Shown: piece by piece, positions 1,674 to 41,662 of the stretch | Layout: every line of letters begins with the position of its first letter | Numbering within the stretch: the first letter of the stretch is position 1 | From: an uncultured Actinomycetes bacterium | GTDB taxonomy: Bacteria > Actinomycetota > Thermoleophilia > RBG-16-64-13 | NCBI GenBank assembly: GCA_963706025.1 | Contig: CAVPLM010000003.1 | Span: forward strand, 320,001 to 384,000 | Reading direction: 5' to 3' | Length of the DNA stretch: 64,000 nt | Notes under the pieces: generated by a model | Database searches by the model: none | The model's input: the letters and a program-made list of their open reading frames with translations, nothing else | What the model was told of the DNA's origin: nothing | Made by a program: the position numbers and the translations under genes

Positions 1674-1696
1674 GCGCCTTAAGGCAGGAAGCGGCT

Positions 1697-6385: not shown

Positions 6386-6403
6386 GGTCTCTGGCTCCTT
6401 ACC

Positions 6404-14292: not shown

Positions 14293-14350
14293 GCCTGTGT
14301 CACGGGTCGGGGACCTTCGGCGACAACCCTCGACAAGGGAGGTAGGCCGC

Positions 14351-21326: not shown

Positions 21327-22256
21327 GGCTGATGCAGGCGGCCAGGCACAAGAAAGCGCTGCAAGATGCGCTCTTTGAGGCCCGCAAGGGTGCGGGCGCC
21401 GTGGCGTTCCAGGGTGAGGATGTCCTTGCAGGTGCCGAAGATGGATTCGATCCGTTGGCGAAGCGGAGCAAGGTGAGGGCCTTCTCCCGGCTCGTCTTTG
21501 CGCTTGGGCCGGACCAGCGGTGGCCTCGAAGCTCTTTGACGGCTGAGGCGAACTCCTCGCCCGCATAGCCCTTGTCGGCAAAGGAGGATCTCCCCTCCCT
21601 CGCGCCGGCAGCTCCCAAGGAGTTCGAGGCCCACCTCCCGTTCATCCCGCTTGGGCGAGGCGAACGATAGCGCCCGGGGAGTGCCGTCCGAGGCGAAGAT
21701 GGCGTGCAGGCGCACCCCCCAGAAGTAGCGGGAGTGACTGCGGCGCAGTAGCCGTAGTCGCAGAGGTCGGAAAGAGCGGAGCGAAGCACCGTCTCCCGGC
21801 TTCTGGCGCACTCGACCGGGGTGGAGTCGATAAGCAGGAGATCATCGTAGAAACCCGGGCTTTGCTCGGCAAAAGATGAGAAGGAGCCACTCAAGGAGCG
21901 GGGAGCAAGACGGCGCCGGCGCTTGAAGTAGCCGGCCTGGCCGGGGACGACAGGGAAACAGGTGGCCAAGAGACTTTCCGGGCCCGCTCGAAGGAAGCGC
22001 CGGTCAGAGGGGATGCCCATGATGGCCTGCGCGACGGCAGAGGGTGACGATCTCGGCATCGGTGGTGCGCCGGCGGGCATTGCCGCGTCTTCTCTGGCAA
22101 AAGATCATCGGCTGTGCAATAAACGAAGGTGCAGAGGGTGTCGAGGTCGGCGTGCATCGTGGCCTCCTGGTCAGACGGTGATGCTGACACCGTCGGACTT
22201 CGGCTTCTCTGCCTCGAATCCCTTCTGCACCGGCATTTTCGTGGAATCAATCACTA
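21255..22256 (-). mobile_element. IS982-family-like insertion sequence; transposase 22157-21274 frameshifted
   Basis: MHADLDTLCTFVYCTADDLLP, LLIDSTPVECARSRETV, YFWGVRLH, ADKGY, LRQRIESIFGTCKDILTLERHGART; imperfect terminal IR sharing ATTCCACG. Confidence 0.8.
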
Positions 22257-22694: not shown

Positions 22695-23501
22695 ATGACA
22701 GATGTCGTCACTGATCCCTATTCGGGGCTGCAGATGGTGGAGCTGAGCCATTTGTGGGGCCATGGCGTGCCGTCCTACCCCGGAGATGCCGACGTACGCA
22801 TGGTGCGGGCGGTCAAGTTCGCCCAGCACGGCGTTATGGCGCACCGGATCACCACCGTGATGCACACCGGGACCCACATGAACGCCCCTCTGCACCTGAT
22901 CCAGAAGGGCGCCGATCTGGCGGCGATCCCCGTCGATCGCTATTTCGGCAACGGCGTGGTGCTGGACATCCCCAAGAAGAACTGGGAAGTGATCACGGCT
23001 GACGACCTCAAAGCAGCCAAGCCCGGGATCCAGTCCGGCGACATCGTTGTCATCGTTACGGGTTGGTATCACAAGTACTCCGACGGACTGGAGTACTTCG
23101 GCGAGGCGCCGGGGCTCTCGAAAGACGCGGCCGAGTATCTGGTGGAGATGGACGCCAAGATGGTCGCCATCGACACCCCCCACGTCGATCATCCTTTGGC
23201 CACCTCCATGGGCCCCCATCGCGGCGGGCCGCAGATGAAACGTCTGGCCGGCGAGTACACCAAGGCCACCGGTCTCGATCCCAAGAAAGAGCACGGCGAG
23301 TGGTACGCCGCGCACAAGACGCTCCTCGCGGCCGGGATCCCCACCATCGAGCAGGTGGGCGGGGACGCCGATCTGGTCAAAGGCAGGCGCGCGACTCTGG
23401 CTGCCACGCCCTGGAAGTTCGAACACGGCGACGCCTGCCCGGTCAGATTGATCGCGATGTTCGATCCCACCGGTAAGGCCCGGATCGAGCCTGGCAACTG
23501 A
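22695..23501 (+). CDS. Cyclase/kynurenine formamidase-family protein (copy 1)
   Basis: HTGTHMNAP, IVTGW, AIDTPHVDHP, TIEQV, GDACPVR; RBS AAGGAG. Confidence 0.88.
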   Translation: MTDVVTDPYSGLQMVELSHLWGHGVPSYPGDADVRMVRAVKFAQHGVMAHRITTVMHTGTHMNAPLHLIQKGADLAAIPVDRYFGNGVVLDIPKKNWEVITADDLKAAKPGIQSGDIVVIVTGWYHKYSDGLEYFGEAPGLSKDAAEYLVEMDAKMVAIDTPHVDHPLATSMGPHRGGPQMKRLAGEYTKATGLDPKKEHGEWYAAHKTLLAAGIPTIEQVGGDADLVKGRRATLAATPWKFEHGDACPVRLIAMFDPTGKARIEPGN

Positions 23502-23530
23502 CTATCCGCCGAGCCGAAAGGACGAACCAT

Positions 23531-24314
23531 ATGAGTCTCAAGATCTACAACCTCAGCCATACCTTCACGCAGTTCATGCCCGAGTGGCCCTCGACTCCGA
23601 GCGTGGACGTAGACGTGGTGAAGTTCCATGCCAAAGACGGCGTATACCAGACGCAGTGGGAAGGCATCATGCACCGCTGCACCCACATGGACGCCCCCAT
23701 CCACGTGACCGAATGTACCCCCAGCATCAACGACTACCCGTTGTGGCGCATGTTCGGCACCGGCGTCGCGGTCTCCATCCCCAAAGAGAAGTGGGGGATC
23801 ATCACCCCCGAGGATCTCGAGAATGCCCGCCCGAAGATCCAAGAGGGCGACATCGTCATGATCAACACCGGCTTCCATCGCAAGTGGGGCGATACCGACG
23901 AGTACTTCGCCTACGGTTGTGGGATCTACCAAGAGGGCGCCCAGTGGCTGGTGGACAAGAAAGTCAAGCTGGTCGGCTACGGCTGCCAGGCGAACGACCA
24001 CCCCATCGCCACCAAGCTCGTCAATCACGGCCTTGGCCCCACGCATCCCCACCTGATCGAAGAGTGGAAAGAGGAGTTCGGGCAGGACCCCATCGAGGAC
24101 TTCCCCAGGCTGGGAATCGGCGCACAAGACCCTGATGGTCAAGGGCGGGATTCCCGGGATCGAGAACGTCGGCGGCGACTTGGACGAGGTGACGGGCAAG
24201 CGCTGCACCTTCTTGGTCCTGCCTTGGCGCTGGCCCGGCGGGGACGGCTGCATCGTGCGCGTCCTTGCCATCATCGACCCGGACCAGGAGTTCCGCTTCG
24301 AAGCTGGGCTGTAA
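23531..24314 (+). CDS. Cyclase-family protein (copy 2; frameshift near 24110)
   Basis: HRCTHMDAP, INTGFH, ANDHP, then GIENVGGDLD...GDGCIVR...FEAGL-stop in shifted frame. Confidence 0.85.
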
Positions 24315-24389
24315 GAACGGCGCCTAACCTGGCGCAGTCGGGCCGCCCGGCGGGTGAAGGGTCCCGCCGCCCGCTGACGGGGTCGCCCG

Positions 24390-26520
24390 TTACCGGGAGG
24401 TGACGTCCTCCAGAGCCTGCTGGTATTCCTCCACGCCGCTCTTGAGGCGCTCGTGCCAGGAGACCTTCTGCCAGGGATCCCAACCGTACCCGTTCGTCGA
24501 GTAGAGCTCGGAACCGAGGGCCACGCTGATGCCCACGCGATCCACCGTCTCGGTGACAAGGCTGCCGTCGGGGTTCCAGCGGAGCGCCTGCAGTGAAGAT
24601 GGGTCGGAGAACCCGATCGCCTGGTAGGGCAGGCGGACCTCGATACAGTCACCTGCCGCCCAGGTGACTCGCGAGTCGTAGTCGCCGCTTGACGGGTCGG
24701 TGGTCCCATAGCGCATTTGCCCAGCGTCGAACCACTCGAGGGGCAGCTTCTGCCCGCTGCCTGGCATCGTCTGAGGTTTGTTCGTGATGAGCTGCTCCGG
24801 GTTCCAGACACCACTTCCTTCGGCGAGTCGCCGCGGCGTCGAATGGTATGTACCCCTTCACCTTGCCCCAGAAGATGGTGAACTGGTCGTTCGAGGCCCG
24901 CACATAGACCTGACCCTGTTTGCCCGGACCGAGCACCACGGCATAGTCTGCTTCCGGGTCCTCGCCGGGCAGGCCGGGCAGGCCACCGTTGCCTCCCGGG
25001 ATGACATCGATACCCAGGGTGAGCGGAACCTCTTTCCACACCTTGCGATTGTCGAGCAACAGGCGCAGGTAGAGATATCCCTCGTCTTTGACGGCACGTA
25101 CCTCGCGTAGCCCGGTAGCGTTTTCGTAGATCACCTGCGAGTCGTTGTCCTCCCACTCGGAACCGTCACCATCCACGGTGACCGCCTGGTCGGAGCCGGG
25201 GTCCATGGCAAGGAGCCCAAAGTGCTCCTCGTTGGTCCAGGGATTGGTCCAGAGCGCCCGGCGGTCGCGCGGGAGCTCGTAGTCGATGGTGTTCCACGTG
25301 AACTTGAACCACTCGTCGGCCCATTCAAAGAGCATGCCGCCCGAAAGCCCCATGCCGTGGATCACGCGCAGCAGCTCCGCATCGATGGCCATCTGCTGCT
25401 GCTCGGAGTGGTTTCCCTGATCGCGGCCGAGTGGGCCGGTGTGCGCCATGCTCATCGAAGACGGCACGCCGAACTCGGTGATCATGACCGGCATGGTGGC
25501 ATGGTGATCCTTCAGGGCGCTCAAGTAGCCGGCGTACGGATCGTTCCGCTCCCCGTATACGAACGATTGAAGAGAGGGCTCATACCTCTGGAAATCGGGG
25601 TAGTACGGATAGGCGTGGTAGCTCGCGAAGTAACCCCCGGGCCACGCGGACGAGACCGCGATGTGGTTCGCGTCCACCGATACCAGATCCTCGTTCTCCA
25701 TGGGTTCCTCCGGATGCCGCAATGGGTCTGTGGTAGGCCAGTTGGTGAAGGTGAGGGGCACGGCGATCCCACGGGCCGCCTCTTCGCTCGCCACGTGATC
25801 GAGCATCTCGGCGAGCCAGGTTTCCGTGGGGGTCGCCTGCTCTGTGGAGGCGAAGTACTCGCCTTCGTACATGGCCCTACCGGCGTTCTTCTTATCCGAG
25901 ACCGAAGTAGCCAAGGGATCCCACTCCACCCCCAATGAGTAGGAGTAGAGCCAGGGGCTGGCATCGGCCGTCCACCTTCCCCACGCCTTGCCCCGCTGTT
26001 GGTCTCTCTGCAGATCCCCGTGCACCGCCGCGACAGCGTCGGTGATCTCGCGCTTGAAGCCGTCGTGCACCGTCGGGTCGAAGAGGTCCTCCGTGCCCAG
26101 AAACTCCTCTTCCGGTATCCACACCCCCTGGATCAGGTAGAGCGGATGGTCCGGGTTGGCCTGATTGAAGGCGGTCAACTCCTGGTAGAACACGGGCGGA
26201 AGGATGGTATACACGCGCACCGCGCGCAGACCCATCGAAGTCATCATCGAGAACCAGCGGGCGTACTCCTCGCCGGTGACGGCCAGCTCGCCGGGCTGGG
26301 TACCGGGAACGGTCGAGCCAAGATTCACGCCCGGCAAGAAGTCGATCACGCCTCCCTGCGTGGAGAGGAGGAGCTTCTGGCCCTCGGTGTGGGCGATGCG
26401 GGTGAGGCCCCCCACAGTCTCCGGCCGCGGCGCCCAGTCTGTCGAGACCGGGGATCCACAGCCAAACAGGAAGCCCATCAGGGCGACCACCATGAAAACC
26501 ACGGCCACGACCGGCGTCAT
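24390..26520 (-). CDS. Lipoprotein with clan GH-A-like TIM-barrel glycoside hydrolase domain (frameshift near 24825)
   Basis: Signal/lipobox LFGC; AVRVYT, LGVEWDP, SYHAYPYYPDF, ITEFGVPS, FEWADEWFK. Confidence 0.6.
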
Positions 26521-27001: not shown

Positions 27002-27502
27002 TCAGACGAAGATGATCTGCGCGCCCTCCGTCATGTCGAGGAAGTCGCTCACCGTGACGATGTCGAGCACCCCGTCGATGAAGTCTTCCTTCTTCAGCCC
27101 CATCATATCCACGGTCATCTTGCACGCGTAGAGCTTTGCTCCCCCATCCACCAGCATCTCCATGTACTCGCGTATGGGCGGCGCCTCGACCTGTTTGATC
27201 TTCTTCCTCATGATCCACGTGGCGAACCTCGTCATGCCGGGCAGGACGCCCATGAGGTTGGGGATCCCCAGATTGCCGGGCACGCCCATCATGCTCATCT
27301 TCATGCTGGTATTTGCCACTGGAGCCAGTTGAAGGTGGTCGATGCGCTTCTTGGTGATCATGTCCATGCCCCAGAAGGTGAAGAACAGGGTCACGTCGAT
27401 GCCGTTGCCCAACGCCCCCCAGGCCATGATCGGCGCGGGATAGGCCATGTCCAGATCGCCTTTGGAGCAGATGAACGCCATGTGGCGGTTCTCATCAGCC
27501 AT
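27002..27502 (-). CDS. DsrE/DsrF/DrsH-like sulfurtransferase (DsrE2-type)
   Basis: SKGDLDMAYP, LFFTFWG, LYACKMTVDMMG. Confidence 0.88.
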   Translation of the reverse strand: MADENRHMAFICSKGDLDMAYPAPIMAWGALGNGIDVTLFFTFWGMDMITKKRIDHLQLAPVANTSMKMSMMGVPGNLGIPNLMGVLPGMTRFATWIMRKKIKQVEAPPIREYMEMLVDGGAKLYACKMTVDMMGLKKEDFIDGVLDIVTVSDFLDMTEGAQIIFV

Positions 27503-27562
27503 GTGCTACTCCTCTCGTCAGTGCTTCGCTGTACGCGCGGCGCAGTTCTTTCGGCCGATCGA

Positions 27563-27883
27563 TCACACGCATCCTTCTGGTTTGCCCAAGCCGGAGATGC
27601 GAGCTACCTTCTTGGCCGGGCCTTTCGGGAACAGGGCGAACAGCTCTTTGGTCGAGACCCCGGTCCCGGTGGTGATCTGCCGAAGGGTGGGCGATTTCCC
27701 GTTCAAGCCTTTGGCCGTCTCCCGGCTCCAATCGATCACCTTCCAGTGAGCCTCGGTCAGCTCGGTGAGTCCCTCTTCCTGGGCGATCTCCGCCGCGATG
27801 ACCTTGTCCCACTCGTTGGGATCGGTCATGAAGCCCTCATCGTTGACCTGCACTACCTTGCCTGCGATCGTCTTGGTCGGCAT
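27563..27883 (-). CDS. tusE: TusE/DsrC-family sulfur relay protein
   Basis: NDEGFM, LTEAHWKVI, LFPKGPAK, GLGKPEGCV (single C-terminal Cys). Confidence 0.85.
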   Translation of the reverse strand: MPTKTIAGKVVQVNDEGFMTDPNEWDKVIAAEIAQEEGLTELTEAHWKVIDWSRETAKGLNGKSPTLRQITTGTGVSTKELFALFPKGPAKKVARISGLGKPEGCV

Positions 27884-27929
27884 ACGCTTCTCCTTCTGAT
27901 GGTCGAGTATTTGTTGGATGACGGTTCGG

Positions 27930-28634
27930 CTATTTGCCGGCCGCCTGCCCGGCAGCTTGCGCGCCTATGACGCGAAGCACGCGCATGGTGAGCACAAGTC
28001 CGCGGCGTGTATCCGGATCTCGCATCTGGCCCAGCAGTGAGCGTAGAGAGGTGTCGATCGGCTGCGCGAGCTCCACCTCGCTCTTCGAGATCACTTCGTG
28101 GACCAGGTTGAGGACCTGGGGCTGCGTCACGTCTCTCATCACGTTCACGAGCGGGACGACGTTATCGCCAAGTTGTTCTATCTCTTCGGGACTGAAGGAG
28201 GTGACGACGTTGTCTGCGGCCCGGGCGCCTCCTCGGGCCAGTGCGAAGTAACCTCTTCGCTCGGCCGACTGCAGCAGGTCGGTCGCCTTCTCGAAGGCGC
28301 TGTCGGTTAGGGGACCGACGGTCTGCGCGAGATCCATCAGGCTCTCGAGCTGGTCGAGCATCTTGTCGATGTTGCGCCCGTTGCGCAGCAGGCGTTTGAC
28401 CAAGCGGAGCACGTCACATAGGTCGACGTACTCCTGGACCTCCTCCAATTGCACGGTCACGAGCTGGAGGGCCTCGTCTGCGATCGGGATCACGTCCTGC
28501 AAGAGCTCGTCGCGCTCCGCCTGCCGGCGCGAGGCGGATCGGGCCTGGTCGGTCAGGATCTGGACCTGGCCGGCGAGGAGATCGAGCTTCTCATGTAGAG
28601 CGGCAAGATCCGAGGCCGCTAATGCCTGTTCCAT
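27930..28634 (-). CDS. DUF1641-like helical protein
   Basis: C-terminal SLRSLLGQMRDPDTRRGL; typical position after sqr. Confidence 0.7.
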   Translation of the reverse strand: MEQALAASDLAALHEKLDLLAGQVQILTDQARSASRRQAERDELLQDVIPIADEALQLVTVQLEEVQEYVDLCDVLRLVKRLLRNGRNIDKMLDQLESLMDLAQTVGPLTDSAFEKATDLLQSAERRGYFALARGGARAADNVVTSFSPEEIEQLGDNVVPLVNVMRDVTQPQVLNLVHEVISKSEVELAQPIDTSLRSLLGQMRDPDTRRGLVLTMRVLRVIGAQAAGQAAGK

Positions 28635-28644
28635 GCCGGCCTCC

Positions 28645-29877
28645 TCACTTGTGCCACTTGCCCGACATGCTCATGCGCGCGGGCAGCGGCAACTCCTGGC
28701 CCTTCAACAGGATGTTCCAATACATCCAACGGAACATCATCTTGCCCCAGTGGTTCAGCTCCGACTCCTGCAGCAAGGCGAAAGGTCCCATCCCGGGCAA
28801 TGGATAGCGGCCGGGAAGTGGCTCCACGTCGTAGTTGAAATCGATCAGCAGACCTTTGCCGAAGCCGGACTCGATGAAGCAGTTCGTGTGCCCGTCGTAG
28901 GGGACCAGCATATCCAGGCCGTCAACGTGGCGTAAGAAGTTCTCGGTGAAACAGTCCACCGCGAAGTGGGCCCCTGAACCGCTTTTCGAGGTGGGCAAGG
29001 CCGCGGTGTCGCCAAGGGCGAAGATGTTCGGGTGCTCCTTCGAAAGGAAGGTGTGGATGTCGACCGGGACGTAGTTCAATTCGTCGCCCAGCCCCGAGCG
29101 TGCCACGAACTCGTCACCCTTGTTGAGCGGGACGGTCACCAGCAGATCGTATTCCAGTTCAGTCTCGTCGTAATGCACGAGTCTCTTGGCGTCCGGGTCG
29201 ACGTGCTCGACCAGGAACTCGGGCACCACCTGGATGCCCTTTTCTTCGAGGATGTCGCCCAGGTACTTGGAGGCGATAGGCTTGGTGAACGCGCCCGGAA
29301 GCGGGGTGGCATAGATCAATTCGACTCTATCGCGGATACCCTGCTCATGGAAGAACCAGTCCGCCAACATGATGAATTCGAGCGGAGCCACCGGGCACTT
29401 GATGGGATTCTCGACCACGTTGAGCACCAGCCGACCGCCCTGCCAGGTGCGCAGGTGTTTCGCCAGAGCCACCGCACCCTCGATGGTGTAGAAGTCGTAG
29501 ATGGACCGGTGCCACTCGGGCCCCTCGAGGCCGGGAGTCTCCCCGGGCCGGGTCCGCGTGCCGGTTGCGATCACCAAGAAGTCATAATTGAGGATGCGAC
29601 CGTTCGTCAGCTTCACGCGGTTCTGATCGGGTTCGATGACGTCTGCCTCGGCCTTGATCATCTCCACCCCGGCTGGGATGAAGTCAGGCTTGGGCTTCAT
29701 CACGTCGTTCTTGCTGTACATGCCGAAGGGGATGAATAGATAGCCCGGTTGGTAGTAATGGGTCTCGATCGGGTCGACGATGGTAATCTTCCACTCATCG
29801 GTGCCGAGTAACCGACGAAGGCGATTGACGACCATAGTCCCCGCGGTCCCGGCGCCGATGACCAGCAGTCGCTTCAT
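28645..29877 (-). CDS. sqr: Sulfide:quinone oxidoreductase-like flavoprotein (type III-like)
   Basis: GAGTAG, HYYQPG, KCPVAPLE, YDGHTNCFIESG, NHWGKMMFRWMYW. Confidence 0.85.
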   Translation of the reverse strand: MKRLLVIGAGTAGTMVVNRLRRLLGTDEWKITIVDPIETHYYQPGYLFIPFGMYSKNDVMKPKPDFIPAGVEMIKAEADVIEPDQNRVKLTNGRILNYDFLVIATGTRTRPGETPGLEGPEWHRSIYDFYTIEGAVALAKHLRTWQGGRLVLNVVENPIKCPVAPLEFIMLADWFFHEQGIRDRVELIYATPLPGAFTKPIASKYLGDILEEKGIQVVPEFLVEHVDPDAKRLVHYDETELEYDLLVTVPLNKGDEFVARSGLGDELNYVPVDIHTFLSKEHPNIFALGDTAALPTSKSGSGAHFAVDCFTENFLRHVDGLDMLVPYDGHTNCFIESGFGKGLLIDFNYDVEPLPGRYPLPGMGPFALLQESELNHWGKMMFRWMYWNILLKGQELPLPARMSMSGKWHK

Positions 29878-31415: not shown

Positions 31416-32701
31416 TCACGGCTTCGCCGTGGTGGTCGTCGAAGGCGCCGCCGTGGTTATGGTCTGCCCCGCCGAGGTCGCGGTCGAAGAGGCCGCTGTC
31501 GTGGTAGTCGTGTCTCCCGAGCCCGAGGTGGTGGCAGTGGTCGACGCGGTGGTCGTGGTGGTCGGTGCCATACCCTCCTTGTAGATCACTCCCAGTTCGG
31601 CCTTGGTGTCGATGAGCCACTGCTCAAAGACATCGCCTTTCTTGGCGTTCAGGAGGGTGGTGGTGATCTCTTCCTTCTTCTCTTCCAGGGTGTACTGCTT
31701 GGCTTCGGTGATGCCGGTGACCTGGATCACGTGATAGCCGAACACCGTTTTGACGGGGTCCGAGATCTCATTCAGGGCTAGGGAGAACACCGAGTCCTCA
31801 AACTCCTTGACCATGGCGCCTTTTGCGACGAGTCCCAGATCCCCACCAGCGTCTTTGGTCCCGGTGTCGTCCGAGTAATCGGCCGCCTACTTGGTCCAGT
31901 CGCGCACCGCCGACCAGATCAGCCCGGACCTTCTGCGCCGTCGCCTAGAGCCTCATCCCAGTCGGCCTGGGTGGGCGCGGACGTACTGGTCGTGGTCGAC
32001 TCGGTGCTGGTCGACGACGAGCCGGCGGTGGTCGACGTAGAACCGTCGGTGGAAGTGGTCGACGCGTCGTCGGATACATCCGGCGTAGCAGAGATCAATA
32101 TGTGGCGGGCCGTCCGCGTCTCGTCGTCGACGTACTTGGCCTTGTTCTCTTCGTAATACGCGGCGATCTCCTCATCAGGGACGGGGGTGACATCCTTGGT
32201 CACCTCGTCGAAGACGCTGTTGAGGAATGTGTCCTCTTTCTCATAGCGCTTTGTCGCCTTGCTTCTCTCTTTCAGCTGATCAAGAGTCATGTTCTGAGCC
32301 GCGAGGGCCGCGTCGAACTGGGCTTGGTCGCCTCCGAAGTAGTCGGTCAGGATCTTGTCTAACTCGGTCTGGACCTCCGCGTCGGTCACCGTCACATCCG
32401 GGAGGGCCACGTTGAGCGAAGGGGCTTTTTGAAGGGCCATCTCATACATGACCATGTAGTCCAGCACGCGCAGTTGGAAATCCTTGTAGCCCTCCGGATC
32501 GGTATCCTTGTCGGGTAGTCCCTGACCCGCGTATTGAGCTTCGAAATCAGCCATGCGCTGGTCGAACTGCTCCTGAGTGATGTAGTTCTCACCTACCTTG
32601 GCTACGGCGTCTTTAGGCAAATCGCCGCCACAACCAACCAGCAAGCCCACAGCGACGGCAAGAAGGAGCACAAGGACGCTGGCCACGAATCTCTTTTTCA
32701 C
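31416..32701 (-). CDS. prsA: PrsA-like foldase lipoprotein (parvulin PPIase), frameshifted near 31890-31945
   Basis: LVGC lipobox, [39 protein letters not shown]; Thr-rich insert and tail. Confidence 0.82.
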
Positions 32702-33023
32702 ACGAACCTCACTTGATCTCGGTCGGAAACGGCGCGGATGCAGTATAGCCTCATCTGCATAAGGACGCTGTTAAGAAGCAGGAGGTGTTCTCTTGGTTCC
32801 ATGGAGAAGCAGGCGCTCACTTCGCGAGGTTTATGTCATGGGGGTGTGGTGCTAGGATGAAGTTGTTGGGGGTAACGGGGCAATCAAACACGCACGATCC
32901 AGCGGGGCCGGCTGCGCTCGTACGGCGCGGTGGGCGACGCAAGATCAAGTCCGGAGAGGAGGGTCGCCAAGACGATTCCGCTGGCCGCACTGAATGACCT
33001 ATCACTTCGTAGGAGGAGGGGCA

Positions 33024-34501
33024 ATGCAGGACAAAGACCCTGAAGTCAAGCATGAAGAACGTGGTGTTGCTCGAAGGCAAGTCCGTCAGCCGGAGAGAGT
33101 TCCTGAAGATCGCCGGTGTCGCCGGAGCCGCGGTGGGCGTGGGCGCCGGCCTGGGCGGAGTGCTTGCCGCCTGCGGCGAGGAAGAGACGACCACCACGAC
33201 AGCCGGCGCGACGACCACGACGGCTGCTCCCACTACTACCACCACCGCCGCTCCCACGACCACCGTGAGCACCGGCCCGGAGGCGGGCCGCGACATCATG
33301 CTCGGCCTGGTCTCGCCCAGCACCGGCCCCCTGGCCTTAGTTCGCGAAAGCCGATGACTGGTGGGTCGATTTCGCCATGGCCGCGGTGCCCGACGGCATC
33401 ATCGGCGGCGACGGCAAGCAGCACAAATCGTGATCAAGCGCGCCGACAGCCAGTCCGACTCCAATGCGGGCGGCTCAGGTGGCGGGCGACCTGATCAACA
33501 ACGACAAGGTCGATCTCATGATGGCCTCCGGCTCCCCAGACACGGCCAACCCGGTCGCCGACCAGTGCGAGGCTTCGGGATGTCCGTCGATCGCGAACTT
33601 CGTGCCCTGGCAGCCGTTCTTCTTCGGTCGGCGGCGAAACCCCGGATCCCACCAAGGCCTTCAAGTGGACCTATGCCCAAGCTCTGGGCCTGGAAGGCAT
33701 CGTGTCCAACTTCATCGCCATGTGGGACCAGGTGGAGACCAACAAGAAGGTCGGCTTCCTCTTCGCCAACGACGCAGACGGGGCGGCCTGGACCGACATG
33801 ACCACCGGGCTTCCGCCGGCGGTGGAGGCGGCGGGATACAGTATTACCTGTCCGACCTGTATCCGGTCCCCAGCGAGGACTTCACCAAGTACATATCCGA
33901 TTTCAAGAAGGAAGGCTGCGAGATCTGCTGCGGCACGATCATCACGCCGGACTTCACCAACTTCTGGAAACAGGCTGTCCAGCAGGGCTACAACCCGAAG
34001 GTCCTGACCATCGGGAAGGCTCTGCTCTTCCCGCAGACCCTCGAAGCCATCGGCGACATCGCCTACAACGCCACGGTCGAAGGCGTGTGGCATCCCACCT
34101 GGCCGTTCAAGGACTCCATCACCGGCAAGACCTGCCAGGAACTGGCCGACGACTACATGGCCAAGACCGGCGAGCAATGGACCGCGCCGATCGGCCAGTA
34201 CGCCAAGTTCGAGTGGGCGGTGGACGTCTTCAAGCGGGTCACGAACCTCGACGACAAGGAAGACATCATCGCCCAGGTGAAGACGACCAAGTTGGAGACC
34301 TGCCTCGGGCCGATCGACTTCACCGCGCCCATCGAAATGATGACCAGGCACCCGGTGGAGAACGTCTACACAGCCGCCGACCGGTGGCGCGCAGTGGGTC
34401 AAGGGCGACGAAGTTCGCCTTCGAGCCGGTCATGGTCAGCAACGCTCTGGCCGACGGAACTGCCGGTGGCTGCCAAAGTCCAGCTGATGCAGTACTCGTA
34501 A
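33024..34501 (+). CDS. Second Tat-lipoprotein ABC substrate-binding protein (frameshifted), paralog of 17487-18965
   Basis: RBS AGGAGG; SRREFLK, LAAC, Thr linker, SPDTANPVADQ, FKKEGCEI. Confidence 0.82.
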
Positions 34502-34574
34502 TCGACCCGGCCCCTTCCCAGGAGGCTGAAGTCCCGGGCTGGGAGCGCGGACAAGTCGGTCCGACTCTTCGGAC

Positions 34575-34605
34575 AGGGGGAGCCCCGCGATGCGGGGCTC
34601 CCCCT
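34575..34605. terminator. GC hairpin between convergent SBP and TetR genes
   Basis: AGGGGGAGCCCCGC-gat-GCGGGGCTCCCCCT perfect 14-bp stem. Confidence 0.65.
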
Positions 34606-34661
34606 CCCTCTCGCGCTCGCCCAGGGCGTCCCTGACGGCCGAGCTTCATTCTGAACGAGTT

Positions 34662-35354
34662 CTAAGCGAGTGAGACGGCGATCATCATTTCGGCGGGCTC
34701 GGGCAGACCGAGCGGGGCGTCTCCTCGAAGGTACAGGTAGAGCGCTTTCTGAAGCTCGCTGAAGATCGTCTGGCTGCCGATGCCGTAGTACAGCTCGTGT
34801 TCTTGACCGAACACCATCCTTCCCCGCAGGACGGCGGCATACATCCCGTATGCCATGCTGATAGCCAAGACCGGGTCGGAATGGCCGATCTCATCGCGGT
34901 GTTTCAATAGGACCGAGATCAGCGCTTCGCGACGCTCCCGGTTCACACGCTCGCCCCGCTCTCTCAGGACAGGATCGAAGACGGAGTTCATCATGAAGGC
35001 GCGAGAGAGCTCGAGCTCTTCCGTGACCCGCCTGATGAGCGCACCGATGGTGCGCTCCACTGCTTCGGCCAGAGTCTCCGGCGAGCTGGGCTCTTCCAGC
35101 AGCTCGGCGTGTATCAGGGGCTCCAACCGGTTGTGGAACCGATCCTGCAGCAAGTGCAGAAGAGCGGTCTTGTCGGGGAACCGCGTGTAGAAGGCGCCGA
35201 CAGACAGACCCGCGCGGTTCAGAACACTTGCCACAGTCAGAGAGTCGATCCCCTCTGTGCGGATCTGCTCCTCGGCCGCATCCAAGAGCCGTTCGAGAGA
35301 CTCGCGGCTTCGCTTCTGGCGAGGGACTCGATAGGTGTGCTCAGCCTGCTCCAT
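34662..35354 (-). CDS. TetR/AcrR-family regulator
   Basis: PRQKRSRESLERLLDAA...AGLSVGAFYTRFPDKTALL. Confidence 0.9.
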   Translation of the reverse strand: MEQAEHTYRVPRQKRSRESLERLLDAAEEQIRTEGIDSLTVASVLNRAGLSVGAFYTRFPDKTALLHLLQDRFHNRLEPLIHAELLEEPSSPETLAEAVERTIGALIRRVTEELELSRAFMMNSVFDPVLRERGERVNRERREALISVLLKHRDEIGHSDPVLAISMAYGMYAAVLRGRMVFGQEHELYYGIGSQTIFSELQKALYLYLRGDAPLGLPEPAEMMIAVSLA

Positions 35355-35559
35355 GCCCACCAGTATATCGTGGGGTCGTTCCTCGCGAAGGTCGAGACTG
35401 ACCTGTTCAGGGGGCCACCTTGCGCAAAGCAAGTTCCACAGGAGGCAGGCCGTGCGCACCCTGCAAACGGCTGATATCCTTTGCACCTACAGGGACCAGT
35501 TTTCCAGGGCTTTCCACCGGACCGCCGCGAGCGCGGAGCCTGCAGAGCAAAGGAGTGAC

Positions 35560-37433
35560 ATGTACAAGGGCGGCTACACCGGCAACGTGCTGCGGGTCAA
35601 CCTGACCGACAAGACGTTCAAAGAGGAACCGCTACCGTTGGAGGTGGCGCAGGACTTCATCGGTGGCTCGGGCTTCACCGTCAAGTACCTCTATGACGAG
35701 GTCCCGCCGGACTGTGACCCCCTGGGCCCCGAGAACAAGCTTATCTACGCTCCCGGGCCGTTCACCGGTACCACCATCCCTTGCGCCAGCCGCATGGCCA
35801 TCAACGCCAAGTCGCCGGCCACGGGCGCAATGGGGGTGGCCACCACCGGCGGGCACTTCCCGGTGGAGATGAAGCGGGCCGGGTACGACGTCATCATCAT
35901 CGAAGGCAAGGCCGAGGAGCCCACCTATCTCTGGATCAAGAACGGCGAGGTCAAGTTCCGCCCGGCGAAGGAGCTCTGGGGTCTCACCAGCTCCGATTGT
36001 CAGCAGGTGATCAAGGACGAGCTTCACGACCAGAACATCCGCATCAGCTGCATCGGGCCGGCCGGGGAGAAGCTCTCCAAGATGGCCTGCATCGTGAACG
36101 AGCGCCGGGTGGCCGGCCGCAAGGGCCTCGGGGCAGTCATGGGCAGCAAGAACCTCAAGGCCATCGCCCTGCGGGGTGAGGGTCAGATGGCCATTGCGGA
36201 CAAGGAGAAGTACGACGCCGCCCGCAAGCGCATGATGGCCGGTATGCGCAAGAGCCCCATCCTTTATCCCGGAGTTCTCCCGCTACGGCACCTCCACCAC
36301 CCTGGATCTGACCCAGAGCCTGGGCATCTATCCGGCCAAGAACTGGACCGCCACCGGCGTCTTCAACCCGGCCGACAAGATCGGCGGGTTCGCCATCGAG
36401 ATCCCGCGGTACGGGCAAGATGGCCTGTGCCGGTTGCCCGGTCGGGTGCAGCCAGCTCCGCTTGGCGCAGGAGGGACCATATGCCGGTTGGTTCACGGAA
36501 GGACCGGAGTACGAGACCTTGTATTCCTTCGGCGGAGTCACCGGGGTGGACAATCCCGACGCCATCATCGCCTGCGACCGTATCTCGGACGAACTGGGGC
36601 TCGACACCATGTCGGCTGGGGTCACCATCGCCTTCGCCATGGAGCTGTTCGAGCGGGGCATCCTCACCCTTGAGGACACCGGGGGTATGGACCTCCACTT
36701 CGGCAACGACCAGTCGATGGTCAAGCTGCTGCACATGATGGGGGAGCGGCAGGGCTTAGGCGACGTCCTGGCCGACGGGGTCAAGGCAGCCGCAGCGAGG
36801 ATAGGCAAAGGCAGCGAGAAGTACGCCATGCACGTCAAGGGCCTGGAGCTGCCGGCGTACGATGTCCGAGGCGCGAAAGCGCACGGTCTCAACTACGCCA
36901 CCGCCTTCACCGGCGCCGACCACAACAAGGGCTACGCTTTCCAAGAGATCTTCGGTATCCCCATCCCCTATCCGGTGGATCGCTTCGCCATCGAGGGCAA
37001 GGGCAAGCTCTGCAAGTGGGACCAGGATGCCCGCACGGCCCTGGCCGACTCTCCCACGATGTGTGTCTTCCTCATGGACATGGCCGTAGCGGACTTCATG
37101 TTCGAGAATACGGCCGATCTCATGGAGGGGGCCACCGGGCTCATCTACACGCCCGAGGAAGTGCACGAGGTCGGCGACCGCATCAACACCTTGGCCCGCG
37201 TCTTCAACATATTCGCCGGGTTCACCAGAGCCGACGACGACCTCCCCGAGCGCCTGAAGACCGAGCCCATCCCCGACGGACCCTCCAAGGGGCAGATGAT
37301 CAGCCAGGCGGATCTCGATTTCATGCTGGACGAGTACTACGATGCCCGGGGCTGGACCCGCGAGGGCGTTCCCACCCGGGCCAAGCTTGAAGAGCTGCGC
37401 CTGGGCTACGCCGCGGACAGGCTGGGCCTGTGA
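35560..37433 (+). CDS. aor: Aldehyde:ferredoxin oxidoreductase (second copy; frameshifts near 36270-36420)
   Basis: RBS AAGGAG; GYTGNVLRVNLT, KSPATG, CIGPAGE, GLGAVMGSKNLKAI, EGPEYET, EYYDARGW. Confidence 0.9.
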
Positions 37434-37479
37434 CGGCGCCCGCAGCCCGTAGGCAAAGGTCTCCCGGAGTGCGCACACC

Positions 37480-37767
37480 ATGAAGATCACCGTTCGTAGC
37501 ATCGCCCTGATCAAGACGCTGCTCGGTCAGGGAGAGATGGAGCTCACCCTGGCCGATGGAGCCACCATCGACGTCCTGCTCGCGGAACTGACGGAGATCG
37601 GCGGCGAGAAGCTGGCTCCGTATGTGAGGGTGCCCAAGGAGGAGAGTGCTCACGCCCCGCTGAGGGTCATGGTCAACGGTCGCGATATCACCGCGCTCGC
37701 CGGCCGGAAGACCGTGCTCGAGGAGGGTGACGACGTCCTGATCTTCATCCCCATCGCCGGGGGTTAG
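37480..37767 (+). CDS. MoaD/ThiS-family protein
   Basis: VMVNGRDI...C-terminal IAGG. Confidence 0.88.
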   Translation: MKITVRSIALIKTLLGQGEMELTLADGATIDVLLAELTEIGGEKLAPYVRVPKEESAHAPLRVMVNGRDITALAGRKTVLEEGDDVLIFIPIAGG

Positions 37768-37843
37768 AGTCCGAGTCGGGCACACAGCTGTCTCGACAAG
37801 AACCCACGGCGCACTCGACGGCGTCCACAAGAAAGGCGGGATC

Positions 37844-38869
37844 GTGAAGACGGTCGACCTTGAGACTCATTTCGTGACCCAGGAGTGGATCGACGCGATA
37901 TACGCAAACCCGGAGTATCCGCGCTTCGTCGACGATCCGGCTTCCGGTAAGCGCCGTATGTACTATCGTGACGACGCCTTCGAGCCCCACGGCGACTTCC
38001 TCCTCGACCGGCTTCTGGATGTGGGTGAGGGACGGATCGAAGGGATGGGCGCCGCCGGCATAGACGTGGCCGTGGTCTCACTGACTGCACCCGGCACGGA
38101 CCATTTCGACCCCGCGACGGGAACCCGGCTTGCCGGCCGGATCAATGACGAGTTGGCGGCGGCTATCGACAGATACCCGGACCGGTTGATGGGTTTCGCG
38201 GCATTGGCTCCGAAGGACCCTTATGCCGCCGCGGCCGAGTTGGAGCGGGCGGTCAAAGAGCTGGGCTTCAGGGGCTGGAAGTGCCACTCGAACTTCGGCG
38301 ACTCCTACATCGACGAGAAGCGTTACTGGCCCATCCTGGCCAAGGCGGAGGAGTTGGGTGCGCCCATCTATCTGCACCCTGTGGCACCCATGATCCCGCA
38401 GCTACGCACCTATGGGCTGGCTCTGGCCGGGGCGGCCTTCGGATTCGGTATCGAGACGGCCACGGCCATGATGAGGCTGATATTGAGCGGGGCGTTCGAT
38501 GCCTTCCCCAAGCTCAAGATCATCCTGGGGCACTACGGCGAAGGCCTCCCCTTCCTGATGCAACGGATAGACCATCCCTTCGTCCGGCCGCATCTCAAGG
38601 CCTCCGACCCGGACGTGGTACCCGCTCTCGAGCGGCTACCCAGCGACTACCTGCGCGACAACATGGTCGTGACCACCAGTGGCAATTACCTTCCGGCGGC
38701 CTTCAAGTGCACCCGTGAGGCGCTCGGCATGGACAAGATCCTCCTGGGTACCGACTATCCCTACGAGGAGATGGACGACTGCATGCGCTACCTTGAGGGT
38801 CTGGGGATGCCGGAAGAAGAAAAGGCACAGCTCTACCACGAAAACGCGGCCGCTTTGGGATTCGCCTGA
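37844..38869 (+). CDS. Amidohydrolase-superfamily aromatic acid (de)carboxylase (LigW/2,3-DHBA/gamma-resorcylate-like)
   Basis: DLETHF (ExH), IYLHP, ILGHYGEGLPF, TTSGNY, GTDYPYE. Confidence 0.82.
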   Translation: MKTVDLETHFVTQEWIDAIYANPEYPRFVDDPASGKRRMYYRDDAFEPHGDFLLDRLLDVGEGRIEGMGAAGIDVAVVSLTAPGTDHFDPATGTRLAGRINDELAAAIDRYPDRLMGFAALAPKDPYAAAAELERAVKELGFRGWKCHSNFGDSYIDEKRYWPILAKAEELGAPIYLHPVAPMIPQLRTYGLALAGAAFGFGIETATAMMRLILSGAFDAFPKLKIILGHYGEGLPFLMQRIDHPFVRPHLKASDPDVVPALERLPSDYLRDNMVVTTSGNYLPAAFKCTREALGMDKILLGTDYPYEEMDDCMRYLEGLGMPEEEKAQLYHENAAALGFA

Positions 38870-38933
38870 TCCGCTTTGGTCGCCGAATCTGTTCGATCCA
38901 TTCCGTCCGTCTGGCAGAAAGGTCCTTGCGCTC

Positions 38934-40139
38934 ATGGAGCAACTCACGTACCACGACATCCTCTACAACGATGAGCCTATCGGGCCGTGGCCCACTCACC
39001 TGCTGACGCGGGTCGACAAACCCACCAACGAGATCGTGGGGCCGATCAAGCGGCGCGACGAGCGGGAAAGCCCCTTTGGGAAATCCCTCCTCGGCGGGTA
39101 CGGGGAGGAGATCCAGCGGGAGTTCATCCGTATGACCGTGCGCTATCCCCTCGGCGCGGCTCTGGTCGACATGCAGAACCTCATCAACACGGTCGTGCGG
39201 AAGCTCAACCCCGTTGCTCCGGAAAAGGCTCCCATACCCGACGATCCTGGAGTGCTGAGCCGCCACGTCAAGCTACTGGGCCATTTCCTGGGCGCCGACA
39301 TGGTAGGTATCGGCCCGCTCAGCCAATCGGCCGTCTATACCCATAACATGAAGGGGCGGGAGATCGAAGCTCCCTTCAAGTACGCCATCGTGCTCCTCTG
39401 CCGAAAGCACGATCCCACCATCTCCGCCTCCAACGGCTGGGAGGAGATAATCGACCCGGCCAGCTTCCAGACCTATCAGCGGCTGGCCATGCAGACCGAG
39501 ACCATGGCCAACTATTTGCGCAGGCTGGGCTGGGAGGCCGAGGCCTCCAACATGAACCGCTACCGCACTTTGATGCCCCAGGTTGTCCTGGACGCCGGTC
39601 TGGGTGAAGTGTCGCGGATGGGGATCATCCTCAACCCGTTCTTGGGATGCAACTTCAAATCCGCCTGTGTGCTCACCAACATGGAGCTGGAGACCGACGG
39701 CTACATCGACTTCGGGCTCCAGGAGTACTGCAGCAACTGCACGCTGTGCGCCGAGCAGTGCCCTCCTCGGGCCATCACTCGGGGACCCAAGACGCTCTAC
39801 AACGGCTACTACACCTGGAAGCTCAACAGCAAGGTCTGCTCCGATTTCGACGTGCTCAACAAGGAAGGCTGCGTGTGCGGCCGCTGCACCAAGGTATGCC
39901 CGTGGCATATCCCCGGCCAGGAGCCGCGCGATTTCGCCGATTGGGATGGAGACCTGATTTGGCTGCACAAGCGGGTGGACGAGCAGCGCGAGCGCATCAT
40001 CGCCAACAATTACGTCGATCCCGCCGAGCATACTCACAAGTGGTGGTTCCCGCTCGACGAGGTCGACGGCAGGCTGGTCGTCCCGACCGACAAGAACAAG
40101 CAGAAGATTTGCCGGGAGTATCCCCTACAGAACCGGTAG
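38934..40139 (+). CDS. Reductive dehalogenase-like cobalamin/2x[4Fe-4S] protein, no Tat signal
   Basis: FLGADMVGIG, DAGLGEVSRMG..LNPFLG, CSNCTLCAEQCP, CGRCTKVCPW, KWW. Confidence 0.8.
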   Translation: MEQLTYHDILYNDEPIGPWPTHLLTRVDKPTNEIVGPIKRRDERESPFGKSLLGGYGEEIQREFIRMTVRYPLGAALVDMQNLINTVVRKLNPVAPEKAPIPDDPGVLSRHVKLLGHFLGADMVGIGPLSQSAVYTHNMKGREIEAPFKYAIVLLCRKHDPTISASNGWEEIIDPASFQTYQRLAMQTETMANYLRRLGWEAEASNMNRYRTLMPQVVLDAGLGEVSRMGIILNPFLGCNFKSACVLTNMELETDGYIDFGLQEYCSNCTLCAEQCPPRAITRGPKTLYNGYYTWKLNSKVCSDFDVLNKEGCVCGRCTKVCPWHIPGQEPRDFADWDGDLIWLHKRVDEQRERIIANNYVDPAEHTHKWWFPLDEVDGRLVVPTDKNKQKICREYPLQNR

Positions 40140-40369
40140 GTCCGGGCTCGTTTGCGCACGTCCCGGCGCGTCTTGCTCGCGCCGCAGCGCGCCGACCTTA
40201 AGCCCGCGATCGCACGCGGGTCGAGGGCTTTACTTTTCGAAGCGGCGGGCTAGAATTAATGCAGGGTCCGCCGCGGTGGCCCCTCCAGCGCCCCGGCGGT
40301 GCCCTGGCGCGTGCTCGCGGGGCTTAGCCGGGCCGGCTCACGTAGAGGCCGGCCGCAAAGGGGGTAATC

Positions 40370-41662
40370 ATGCGGCGGACGTGGCTCCTTCTAATCCTCA
40401 CTGTCTCATTGGCGATTGCATTCGTGTGCACGGGCGCCCTAGGGCCGGCGCCGCCGCGCGCGGCCGCCGCGGCGCCGACGTTCAGTGACGTTCCGGTGGA
40501 CCACCCCTACTACGAAGCCATCGAGGGGATGGCCGCGGCGAACGTTATCAACGGCTTTCCTGGCGGCACCTTCCGTCCCGACGACCTCGTTATCCGCCAG
40601 CAGTTCGCCAAGATGATCGTGCTGGCTCTGGGCCTGCCGGTGAGCGAGCAGGATGTGTGCACATTCCCCGACGTCTACAAGGGCGGACCCGACACGTTCT
40701 ATCCCGACAACTTCATCGCCGTCGCAGCCAAGAAAGAGATCACCACCGGCTACACCGACGGCCGCTTCGGCGCTGTTGACAACATCAAGCGATGCCAGAT
40801 ATCCACGATGATGGTCCGGGCAGCCAATAACCTGGACTTCCGCGATCTGGTCGAAGCCCCGGATTGGTTCCTGTCCGACTGGGGCATCAGCGACGTCCAT
40901 GGGCCGTTCGCCGACACCGCTCAGTACAGCGGGCTTTTCGAGGGATTGCTACCCGATTTCTATCGGGATCCCTACAAGCTGGCCACCCGGGGTGAGGTGG
41001 CCCAGTTGCTCTGGAGCCTCAAGACTTTTGTCAGGCAGACCAAGAGCGTGGACCACTTGGTGACGATCACCGAGCTGACGGACGGCCCAGTGGCGGCGGC
41101 GTTCAGAGCGGCGCTGGAGGATGCCTCCGGCGGCCAGGTCGAATGGATGAGAGCGCTGCGGACGGAGCACCCCGTGAACGCCTCCATCGTGGCCTCTGTC
41201 AATTATGGGTGTGCCAATGGTGATTTTTACCTTGGTGTGCCCGGGCCGGGAGGAACAGCCGTGGTCGGCCCACTGATGGCCGGCTTCCTGACCTATATGG
41301 AGAAGTTCGGAGCAGAGGTCGGCTACGGGGCTCTGTTCGATGTCAAGTTCGCCTCCGCTTTCAACTGGCGGCTGGGGGGAGACTATCTTCGCCAGGGGGA
41401 CGAGACTCTTGATGAGTACGCGGCTCGGATCCAACTGCTTATGGACAGCTTCGTGCAGCAGCACGCTGAAGACGAGATGTTCTTCCTATCCGATCCGGCC
41501 GTGCACGATCTCATCGAGTCCAGCGGCTCTCTGAGGATATCCGACCCGGGCCGGGCGCTACTTGGTGTGCGCTACGGGGTAGACCTGTACCGGGCGTCCG
41601 GAGACGCATATGCTGACGTGATAGACCAGGTCGCCGACGAGTTCTGGCCCTGGGAGGATTGA
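40370..41662 (+). CDS. Secreted S-layer homology (SLH) domain protein
   Basis: Signal peptide; FSDVPVDHPYYEAI, FRPDDLVIRQQFAKM, ATRGEVAQLL; unknown C-terminal domain. Confidence 0.8.
   Translation: MRRTWLLLILTVSLAIAFVCTGALGPAPPRAAAAAPTFSDVPVDHPYYEAIEGMAAANVINGFPGGTFRPDDLVIRQQFAKMIVLALGLPVSEQDVCTFPDVYKGGPDTFYPDNFIAVAAKKEITTGYTDGRFGAVDNIKRCQISTMMVRAANNLDFRDLVEAPDWFLSDWGISDVHGPFADTAQYSGLFEGLLPDFYRDPYKLATRGEVAQLLWSLKTFVRQTKSVDHLVTITELTDGPVAAAFRAALEDASGGQVEWMRALRTEHPVNASIVASVNYGCANGDFYLGVPGPGGTAVVGPLMAGFLTYMEKFGAEVGYGALFDVKFASAFNWRLGGDYLRQGDETLDEYAARIQLLMDSFVQQHAEDEMFFLSDPAVHDLIESSGSLRISDPGRALLGVRYGVDLYRASGDAYADVIDQVADEFWPWED

Follow-up and report, generated by a model that had tools for sequence, protein, structure and literature searches.

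A Thermoleophilia gene unit that may strip formyl, carboxyl and halogen groups from polyhydroxylated plant aromatics

RESULTS

A candidate route for halogenated polyhydroxy aromatics

In a 64,000-nt stretch of DNA from an uncultured Actinomycetota bacterium (contig CAVPLM010000003.1; hereafter the window, with coordinates counted from its start), the unit at 34662..40139 encodes an aldehyde ferredoxin oxidoreductase (AOR), a MoaD/ThiS sulfur carrier, a decarboxylase of the amidohydrolase superfamily and a reductive dehalogenase-like protein (RdhA) in succession, beside a divergent gene for a TetR-family regulator. We tentatively propose, at somewhat less than an even chance, that this unit serves the serial removal of formyl/carboxyl groups and of halogen from polyhydroxylated plant aromatics, with electrons passing through the ferredoxin pool.

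The proposed route would operate from one transcription unit in uncultured anaerobic Thermoleophilia of soil and peat (GTDB family RBG-16-64-13, judged from the nearest relatives), and would start from a plant-derived ortho-hydroxy aromatic aldehyde. By the established chemistry of their families, AOR, with MoaD providing for its pterin, would oxidize the aldehyde to the acid and reduce ferredoxin, the decarboxylase would remove the carboxyl group ortho to a phenolic hydroxyl, and RdhA, with B12 and two [4Fe-4S] clusters, would cut the aryl-halogen bond using Tyr181/Lys242 as a proton relay. Additional hydroxyl groups may well be present on the substrates, which would be of halo-resorcinol, halo-phloroglucinol or halo-catechol type and derive from halogenated polyphenols or lignin, because RdhA has Asp in place of the phenolate-binding Arg of the characterised enzyme and another Asp in its second-halide pocket. 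The dehalogenated di- or trihydroxybenzene would next undergo ring reduction and then be opened by a cyclase-type step, in place of phenol carboxylation. Electrons would be drawn from the general ferredoxin pool, making AOR an optional front end and not a dedicated donor.

An RdhA-like protein with conserved catalytic residues and an altered pocket

The best solved relative of the 401-aa RdhA is NpRdhA (E 2e-66), and the alignment, which begins at RdhA residue 16, is confined to NpRdhA residues 258–627; the match to PceA is far weaker (E 3e-23). The structural model of RdhA (pLDDT 90.9) superposed on 4RAS with a Z score of 40.6 (31% identity) and a root-mean-square deviation of 2.7 over 376 aligned residues, compared with Z 29 for PceA and Z 15 for QueG. 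RdhA equals the catalytic half of NpRdhA, being a single-domain protein, predicted to be cytoplasmic, with Cys motifs for two 4Fe-4S clusters at residues 266 and 302. No twin-arginine translocation (Tat) signal was found with PF10518 or TIGR01409, and the vestigial duplicated cobalamin domain and the reductase (PDOR) fusion are absent from its 401 residues. Tat-less single-domain rdhA genes are known in general. Of 2513 candidates, 666 proteins fell within the family at E<=1e-20, and the best 120 of these relatives (56–91% identity), on which the RdhA residue counts are based, were mostly about 385–440 aa long. No member of the clade was found among the 11 plasmid records, all of which lay under 36% identity. 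Reductive dehalogenases (RDases) have been divided into four subfamilies, none of which, in the available part of that article (PMC10463259), is matched exactly by the predicted architecture of RdhA.

Pocket residues were mapped by counting along the ungapped parts of the NpRdhA alignment. Each of S177, Y181 and K242, the counterparts of NpRdhA S422, Y426 and K488, is conserved in 119/120 relatives, and the equivalent of F291 is also kept in RdhA; on this mapping, the catalytic machinery is intact. In NpRdhA, the substrate hydroxyl is bound by K488, R552 and S422, A419 borders the pocket of the second bromine, and the R552L variant is severely compromised (PMC7565698). The position of A419 is taken by D174 in RdhA, with Asp in 106/120 relatives, and that of R552 by D306, with Asp in 78/120 and Arg in none, whereas R552-type Arg is retained in 16 of 18 distant matches of at least 520 aa. 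The substrate is probably other than an NpRdhA-type halophenolate. Pocket residues also differ among three tandem rdhA paralogues of an Oscillospiraceae locus (L047, 270–4056).

RdhA might instead be no dehalogenase and remove some other leaving group, such as hydroxyl, by B12 chemistry (compare QueG with its epoxide). Its family is wide and strongly conserved over many anaerobic lineages, its pocket is altered, and it scored 127.5 bits on TIGR02486, below the cut-off of 160.35. However, the Tyr-Lys dyad and the Ser are conserved, the model lies far closer to NpRdhA than to QueG, and the homologue of another locus, L035, reached 160.8 bits on TIGR02486, above the cut-off, and we regard non-halide chemistry as highly improbable. 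The identity of QueG, which appears in JGI names, was ruled out by 27.4 bits on TIGR00276 (cut-off 200) together with the Z score of 15.

A predicted ortho-hydroxybenzoate decarboxylase

The best PDB matches of the decarboxylase were LigW (E 2e-59), LigW2 (9e-59) and gamma-resorcylate decarboxylase (gamma-RSD; 2e-51), which tied at Z 39–40 against its model (pLDDT 87.7), while IDCase and ACMSD ranked lower (E 1e-17 to 1e-30, Z 33–36). Among 120 sequences, E7 and H9 were each kept in 116 and H178, F201, H230 and R241 in all, and D304 and Y307 were invariant in 30 sequences. The metal ligands and the His/Arg/Asp/Phe set of ortho-benzoate decarboxylases (o-BDCs) are thereby present, as described together with Tyr for LigW and gamma-RSD (PMC6305744; PMC8187880). 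Y307 is LigW-like and stands where gamma-RSD has Phe290, and the equivalent of LigW Tyr317 is present; the N-terminal loop (LigW Tyr51/Arg58, for the distal carboxylate) was not aligned by phmmer. Asn234 of gamma-RSD, which binds the second ortho-hydroxyl, is replaced by Phe (F246 in 116/120). We predict a metal-dependent ortho-hydroxybenzoate (de)carboxylase. Enzymes of this kind need a phenolic hydroxyl ortho to the carboxyl group, reject anilines and accept halogens at one meta position (PMC6644310).

The rejection of anilines bears on nitrogen-containing substrates (halo-aminophenols, hydroxypyridines or other heterocycles), whose N-H would be bound by the Asp pair and for which the cyclase-family genes near the unit would be amidases. 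The two acids in the RdhA pocket, weak matches of the cyclases to kynurenine formamidase and isatin hydrolase, and genes for a xanthine/uracil permease and a nitrilase in the L035 and L031 rdhA neighbourhoods speak for such substrates. Yet besides the aniline result, IDCase and ACMSD rank below the LigW group, and the cyclases resemble a DPGC-like protein far more than formamidase. As a leading reading, an amine or N-heterocycle substrate was downgraded on aniline rejection and the phloroglucinol-cluster evidence given below, and we hold it to be very unlikely.

Conservation and history of the unit

One genome scan with the RdhA alignment as query gave 53 loci. The order TetR-AOR-MoaD-decarboxylase-rdhA was found in 10 of them, four having a second binding-protein gene after TetR, and three loci (L009, L014, L023) keep the unit minus AOR and MoaD. 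In L051 the unit is rearranged, with TetR-rdhA followed by corrinoid methyltransferase genes and then the other three genes reversed. An earlier note on this DNA, made from the sequence alone, had assigned the enzyme classes and suggested a synteny search for aor, amidohydrolase and rdhA; the order is conserved in 10/53 loci, and the classes, the co-orientation and the conservation as a unit are supported.

TetR is kept in all 13 colinear loci (tblastn), and prsA flanks every one. The trees of RdhA, the decarboxylase, TetR and YchF+PrsA broadly agree, and the 11 hosts with YchF in range share 65–91% identity with the window YchF. Because prsA is shared and the trees are congruent with YchF+PrsA, the 13 loci represent a single inherited locus within one lineage of Thermoleophilia. 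The decarboxylase stop and the rdhA start overlap as TGATG in 8/13 loci, and this coupling makes their co-transcription probable. A careful tree included 26 of 55 rows (29 left out). In it, the AOR-less loci form one clade (support 100/99) nested among AOR-bearing loci, and monophyly of the AOR-bearing loci was rejected (p-AU 1e-38). Given this nesting, AOR was lost once, with the remainder of the unit kept.

Co-occurrence, scored by equal size of the longest contig among the top 120 matches, was 11 for decarboxylase-AOR, 3 for RdhA-decarboxylase and 1 for RdhA-AOR (offset controls 0.2–0.3), and the decarboxylase-AOR cases reach down to 66–68% identity. Indirectly, this suggests that AOR and the decarboxylase form a wider module than the unit with rdhA. 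The unit could then hold two co-regulated but chemically separate modules: an older AOR-MoaD-decarboxylase set for non-halogenated ortho-formyl/carboxy phenols (an anaerobic analogue of FerD+LigW, or with AOR as an acid reductase), and an RdhA appended in one lineage and acting on other compounds. Along with the co-occurrence counts, the AOR-MoaD-decarboxylase block of L051, which lies 5.5 kb from a different-clade rdhA in opposite orientation, and the 39 of 53 rdhA loci without the cassette (some flanks short, two loci partial) would fit two modules. Gene loss, however, hit AOR and spared decarboxylase-rdhA with its overlapping stop and start, and L051 still has both modules close together; separate modules are possible, though on the unlikely side.

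In L051 (11438–18213), rdhA and the reversed block are separated by genes for a corrinoid protein, fragments of an MtaA/CmuA-like methyltransferase and RACo, and RACo is also found near rdhA in L018 (3–1421) and L034 (16173–18056). Such neighbours could serve O-demethylation of halogenated methoxy-aromatics. A second clade of Thermoleophilia repeatedly has CbiM/CbiQ cobalt-uptake genes no more than 10 kb from rdhA (annotated in L015, 286–3601; also L011, L012, L024 and L052).

Electron supply

The intact AOR of L004 best matches 9G7J (E 2e-130) and 1AOR (5e-126), ahead of FOR, WOR5 and BamB. The four Fe-S cysteines C289, C292, C296 and C501 are invariant in 44 sequences, as are E318 and H454, and Glu318 and His454 are residues that we take to be catalytic. 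The AOR is predicted to be a Pyrococcus furiosus-type, tungsten-family enzyme, whose pterin cofactor MoaD/ThiS presumably serves. No CxxCxxCxxxC (2x[4Fe-4S]) ferredoxin besides RdhA was found in the window or the 14 cassette loci with a pattern that misses 2Fe-2S ferredoxins.

The earlier note had pictured a self-contained unit in which AOR powers dehalogenation. This does not agree with the three loci that lost AOR and MoaD yet keep the promoter, decarboxylase and RdhA, and a dedicated-donor role is further at odds with the RdhA loci without the cassette (39/53) and the lack of a local ferredoxin pattern. It is also unlikely, in our view, that this clade of RdhA proteins forms a distinct class of cytoplasmic B12 dehalogenases for naturally halogenated polyphenol rings (halo-phloroglucinol, -resorcinol and -catechol), with AOR feeding the ferredoxin-like domain of RdhA directly in a redox-neutral module. 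The AOR-RdhA complex prediction from the L004 alignments scored 0.00, which is evidence for neither side.

Neighbours of rdhA and the choice between polyhydroxybenzenes and halophenols

In L035, a 54% identical RdhA homologue is co-oriented with and downstream of genes for a short-chain dehydrogenase/reductase, a 3-hydroxyacyl-CoA dehydrogenase, a cyclase with the Trp-x-Tyr motif, BKACE and a CoA transferase. The first of these matches 5G4K (E 4e-106), which we take to be a phloroglucinol reductase. These gene families equal the composition of the anaerobic phloroglucinol cluster PGR-DPGC-TfD-TAL of Clostridium scatologenes, as given in the available text (PMC10470551). In L031 (Bathyarchaeia), the gene immediately after rdhA encodes a Trp-x-Tyr cyclase, and a PhlG-like hydrolase is encoded close by. 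Two related cyclases lie within 10 kb upstream of the unit in 10/13 colinear loci and possibly catalyse a later ring-opening step, a link to the unit that we infer; PGR, TfD and TAL had no match in the window or the cassette flanks. Because distant relatives adjoin phloroglucinol-degradation genes, halogenated polyhydroxybenzenes seem likelier substrates than simple halophenols.

The hosts also have a bearing on the substrate. The genera RBG-16-64-13, Chersky-299 and 'CAQPS01' have been named as catechin degraders (PMC12203004), and catechin-degrading genera of the family were reported from peat microcosms (bioRxiv 10.1101/2024.10.22.619724; PMC12203004). L002 and L018 bear the names RBG-16-64-13 and Chersky-299, and L009 is on a CAIQPS01 contig. 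5-Chlorovanillin is a product of the fungal chlorination of lignin and humics (PMC6299022).

The earlier note had proposed a different course, from halo-hydroxybenzaldehyde (here, halo-salicylaldehyde) to the acid, to a simple halophenol and to phenol, with AOR powering dehalogenation and the product possibly entering a pps/ppc island. The gene order agrees with this chemistry, a neutral monohalophenol could hydrogen-bond to Asp, o-BDCs tolerate halogen at one meta position (PMC6644310), and phosphoenolpyruvate (PEP)-synthase-like and PpcB-like genes are indeed present at 4.7–17.3 kb of the window, 18–30 kb from the unit. However, the window UbiD is in two pieces scoring 337.7 and 99.2 bits, below the PpcB cut-off of 468.95, no separate PpcA gene was found among the 26 open reading frames (ORFs) scanned in the window, and the 53 flanks (10 kb limit) gave no match to a Pps- or UbiD-like gene. 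The phenolate-binding Arg, without which NpRdhA is severely compromised (R552L; PMC7565698), is absent, AOR was lost in three loci, and no ferredoxin pattern other than RdhA is found locally. Neither the linkage to pps/ppc nor the phenol end point is upheld, and this course is quite unlikely.

In the island itself (4709–8149 and 15800–17262), the PEP-synthase-like gene is a split pair, one part HAD-fused, and the PpcB-like UbiD has IclR and CoA ligase genes nearby. It also contains xanthine-dehydrogenase-like FAD/2Fe-2S domains, which are frameshifted, and after them a molybdopterin oxidoreductase (11064–14345).

Several observations weigh against the proposed removal of formyl/carboxyl groups and halogen from polyhydroxylated aromatics. 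The phloroglucinol link rests on two distant loci (L035 and L031), the Thermoleophilia cyclases are without the full Trp-x-Tyr motif and are parted from the unit by the housekeeping gene prsA, and L034 has a near-identical RdhA but lacks the phloroglucinol cluster. The absence of Asn234 would suit a phloroglucinol carboxylate poorly. As for the RdhA pocket, D306 is itself variable, and mutual exclusion of Asp419 and Arg552 outside the RdhA family was not significant (Fisher p 0.15). Most rdhA loci are without the cassette, among them L002 and L013, which fall within the RdhA clade of the cassette loci, and the cassette-less neighbourhoods are mostly unrelated. Synteny counts about once, with L051 as the sole second arrangement.

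L034 also holds, just upstream of rdhA (9438–9521), a 28-aa remnant 96% identical to the 3-hydroxyacyl-CoA dehydrogenase of L035, a sequence trace that suggests recent loss of the phloroglucinol cluster.

Promoter and operator elements

The element TGnTATCCT, found upstream of AOR or the decarboxylase both in the window and in the colinear loci, is kept where AOR was lost and is a putative operon promoter. A sigma-70 promoter scan found no site in the TetR gap of the window, TGnTATCCT included, a terminator scan of 32700–40500 gave 0 terminators, and Rfam gave 0 matches in the window, with no cobalamin riboswitch at gathering score.

Palindrome B follows TGnTATCCT in 9/10 relatives outside the subclade of the window. 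With a matrix trained on those nine gaps (leave-out test, 150 shuffles), it was found upstream of the binding-protein gene in 14/14 loci, window included (at most 4/150 shuffles reached the score). The AOR promoters of the window, L001, L004 and L033 have no palindrome B; there, a conserved block occupies its position and could be a subclade-specific variant operator. The geometry of palindrome B presumably resembles that of TetR-type acyl-CoA repressor boxes.

A second motif, palindrome A (AGAAT-N4-ATTCT), is located in the gap that separates TetR from the extra binding-protein gene. With training on seven such gaps and 300 shuffles for comparison, it was found in 4/4 TetR-rdhA gaps (0–13/300 shuffles) and in only 1/7 direct TetR-AOR gaps. 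TetR relatives at 34–37% identity are divergent from stand-alone rdhA in L016, L018, L021 and L051, and in L018 (Chersky_299; 1591–4891) two rdhA copies lie either side of a TetR. In the TetR-AOR gap of the window, palindrome A is absent (214/300 shuffles score as well), so that control by TetR, stated as given in the earlier note, is an interpretation that the window does not support. A terminator-like hairpin of the lost gene still stands directly after TetR in L005; because of this leftover and the palindrome A pattern, the TetR-AOR adjacency looks like the outcome of a deletion that removed the gene with the TetR-linked site. A TGCAAA-N12-TTTGCA repeat in the window gap was rejected, as it is not conserved in L001, L004 or L033.

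Layout and assembly state of the locus

Pfam and NCBIfam back the gene names of the five-gene locus (Table 1). The four co-oriented genes are separated by 46, 76 and 64 nt, in keeping with the gaps under 80 bp first noticed, and TetR is, as also described, divergent from AOR (across 205 nt) and adjoined by the binding-protein gene, which is convergent on the TetR 3′ end. The next gene after rdhA encodes an SLH protein 230 nt on, leaving no room for rdhB.

Table 1. Coordinates of the unit and associated features in the window
Feature	Position	Strand	Remarks
TetR-family regulator	34662..35354	-	Start ATG at 35354; PF00440 and PF17918
Tungsten-family AOR (predicted)	35560..37433	+	AFOR_N/AFOR_C; 623 aa in relatives
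MoaD/ThiS sulfur carrier	37480..37767	+	PF02597; TIGR01687 below cut-off
Amidohydro_2 protein, LigW/gamma-resorcylate decarboxylase group	37844..38869	+	Pfam and PDB matches
RdhA-like Fe-S protein, 401 aa	38934..40139	+	Two 4Fe-4S motifs
Peripla_BP_6 binding protein, Tat signal	33052..34501	+	Frameshifted in assembly; in 13/13 colinear loci
Tandem cyclase-family metallohydrolase genes	22695..24403	+	30–38% identity to DPGC-like cyclase of L035
Extended -10-like element TGnTATCCT	35472..35480	+	About 88 nt upstream of aor; from intergenic comparison
Conserved block, possible variant operator	35492..35520	+	Kept in window, L001, L004 and L033
Palindrome B (TRAGYR-NN-YRCTYA type)	32804..32821	+	Upstream of binding-protein gene

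The AOR of the window is not a single ORF: compared with L001, L004 and L033, it must be read in three frames, the breaks being +1 insertions near 36267 and 36400. Aligned to each of these three relatives, the binding-protein gene shows no fewer than seven indels of one base. These breaks might mean that the unit is decaying in this strain, with AOR and the binding protein as pseudogenes. Against this, dN/dS was 0.04–0.06 on either side of the AOR breaks, identity to intact copies was 86–94% across all three frames, prsA, cyclase 2 and ubiD of the window are likewise split, and the L033 AOR has its own, different +1. Purifying selection was found on all four coding segments tested (dN/dS 0.03–0.11). 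Because of the low dN/dS, the high identity and the other split genes, the insertions are probably assembly noise, and decay is barely credible.

Elsewhere in the window, a second AOR-MoaD pair (2–1673) is merely 40% and 26% identical to that of the unit. The translation of 21274–22080 (-), just upstream of the cyclase pair, looks by eye like a decayed transposase, and a sulfur-relay cluster (SQR-like flavoprotein, DUF1641, DsrC/TusE and DsrE2; 27002–29877, -) lies between the cyclases and prsA.

DISCUSSION

Each enzyme of the unit comes from a known superfamily; apparently, neither their combination nor the altered clade of RdhA has been described. No publication joining a reductive dehalogenase, an aldehyde ferredoxin oxidoreductase and an amidohydrolase, and no description of this operon or RdhA clade, was found in a literature search that left most subscription journals outside; within that range, the earlier remark that no operon of such composition is described stands. 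Phloroglucinol and dehalogenases are treated separately in the part of PMC3971608 available. All characterised catabolic RDases act on ortho-halophenols (PMC10463259).

For most reductive dehalogenases predicted from genomes, the natural substrate has yet to be found. A small, soluble, unfused RdhA with a systematically different pocket, and with neighbours that constrain the chemistry, leads to a short testable substrate list. It also offers a way to ask whether fermentative anaerobes, besides organohalide respirers, dechlorinate natural plant-derived organochlorines. If the RdhA clade were a separate kind with direct transfer from AOR, the turnover of polyphenols in peat and wet soil would be linked to the natural chlorine cycle by an anaerobic catabolic route.

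Among known systems, the phloroglucinol cluster of Clostridium scatologenes has the same families as those upstream of the L035 RdhA, and L031 and the cassette loci have related cyclases in the vicinity of rdhA; no dehalogenase is mentioned in the available part of its description (PMC10470551), and the window and cassette flanks gave no match to PGR, TfD or TAL. With the respiratory RDases (PceA 4UQU, 8Q4H), RdhA has in common the single B12 domain, two Fe-S motifs and a dyad of Tyr and a basic residue, but it is without Tat peptide and rdhB anchor and matches them weakly (E 3e-23; Z 29). Closer are NpRdhA (Nitratireductor pacificus; 4RAS/6ZXX), BhbA and JtRdhA, likewise Tat-less with a catalytic core of B12 and 2x[4Fe-4S]. 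Unlike these, RdhA is without a duplicated B12 domain, a PDOR reductase or, by pattern scan, a neighbouring ferredoxin/reductase; Asp replaces both R552 and A419, the hosts are anaerobic, and the operon includes AOR and a decarboxylase.

The decarboxylase has the ExH metal motif, the His/Arg/Asp/Phe set and the fold (Z 39) in common with gamma-resorcylate and 2,3-dihydroxybenzoate decarboxylases (2DVT, 4QRO), whereas it has Phe for Asn234 and a LigW-like Tyr for Phe290 of gamma-RSD. The combination of aldehyde oxidation with LigW-type ortho-decarboxylation recalls FerD and LigW in the beta-5 lignin pathway of Novosphingobium aromaticivorans, where the genes are close (Saro_0797/Saro_0799; PMC11323797). 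In contrast to that aerobic pathway, the unit has an oxygen-sensitive, tungsten-family AOR in place of an NAD aldehyde dehydrogenase, and a dehalogenase in addition.

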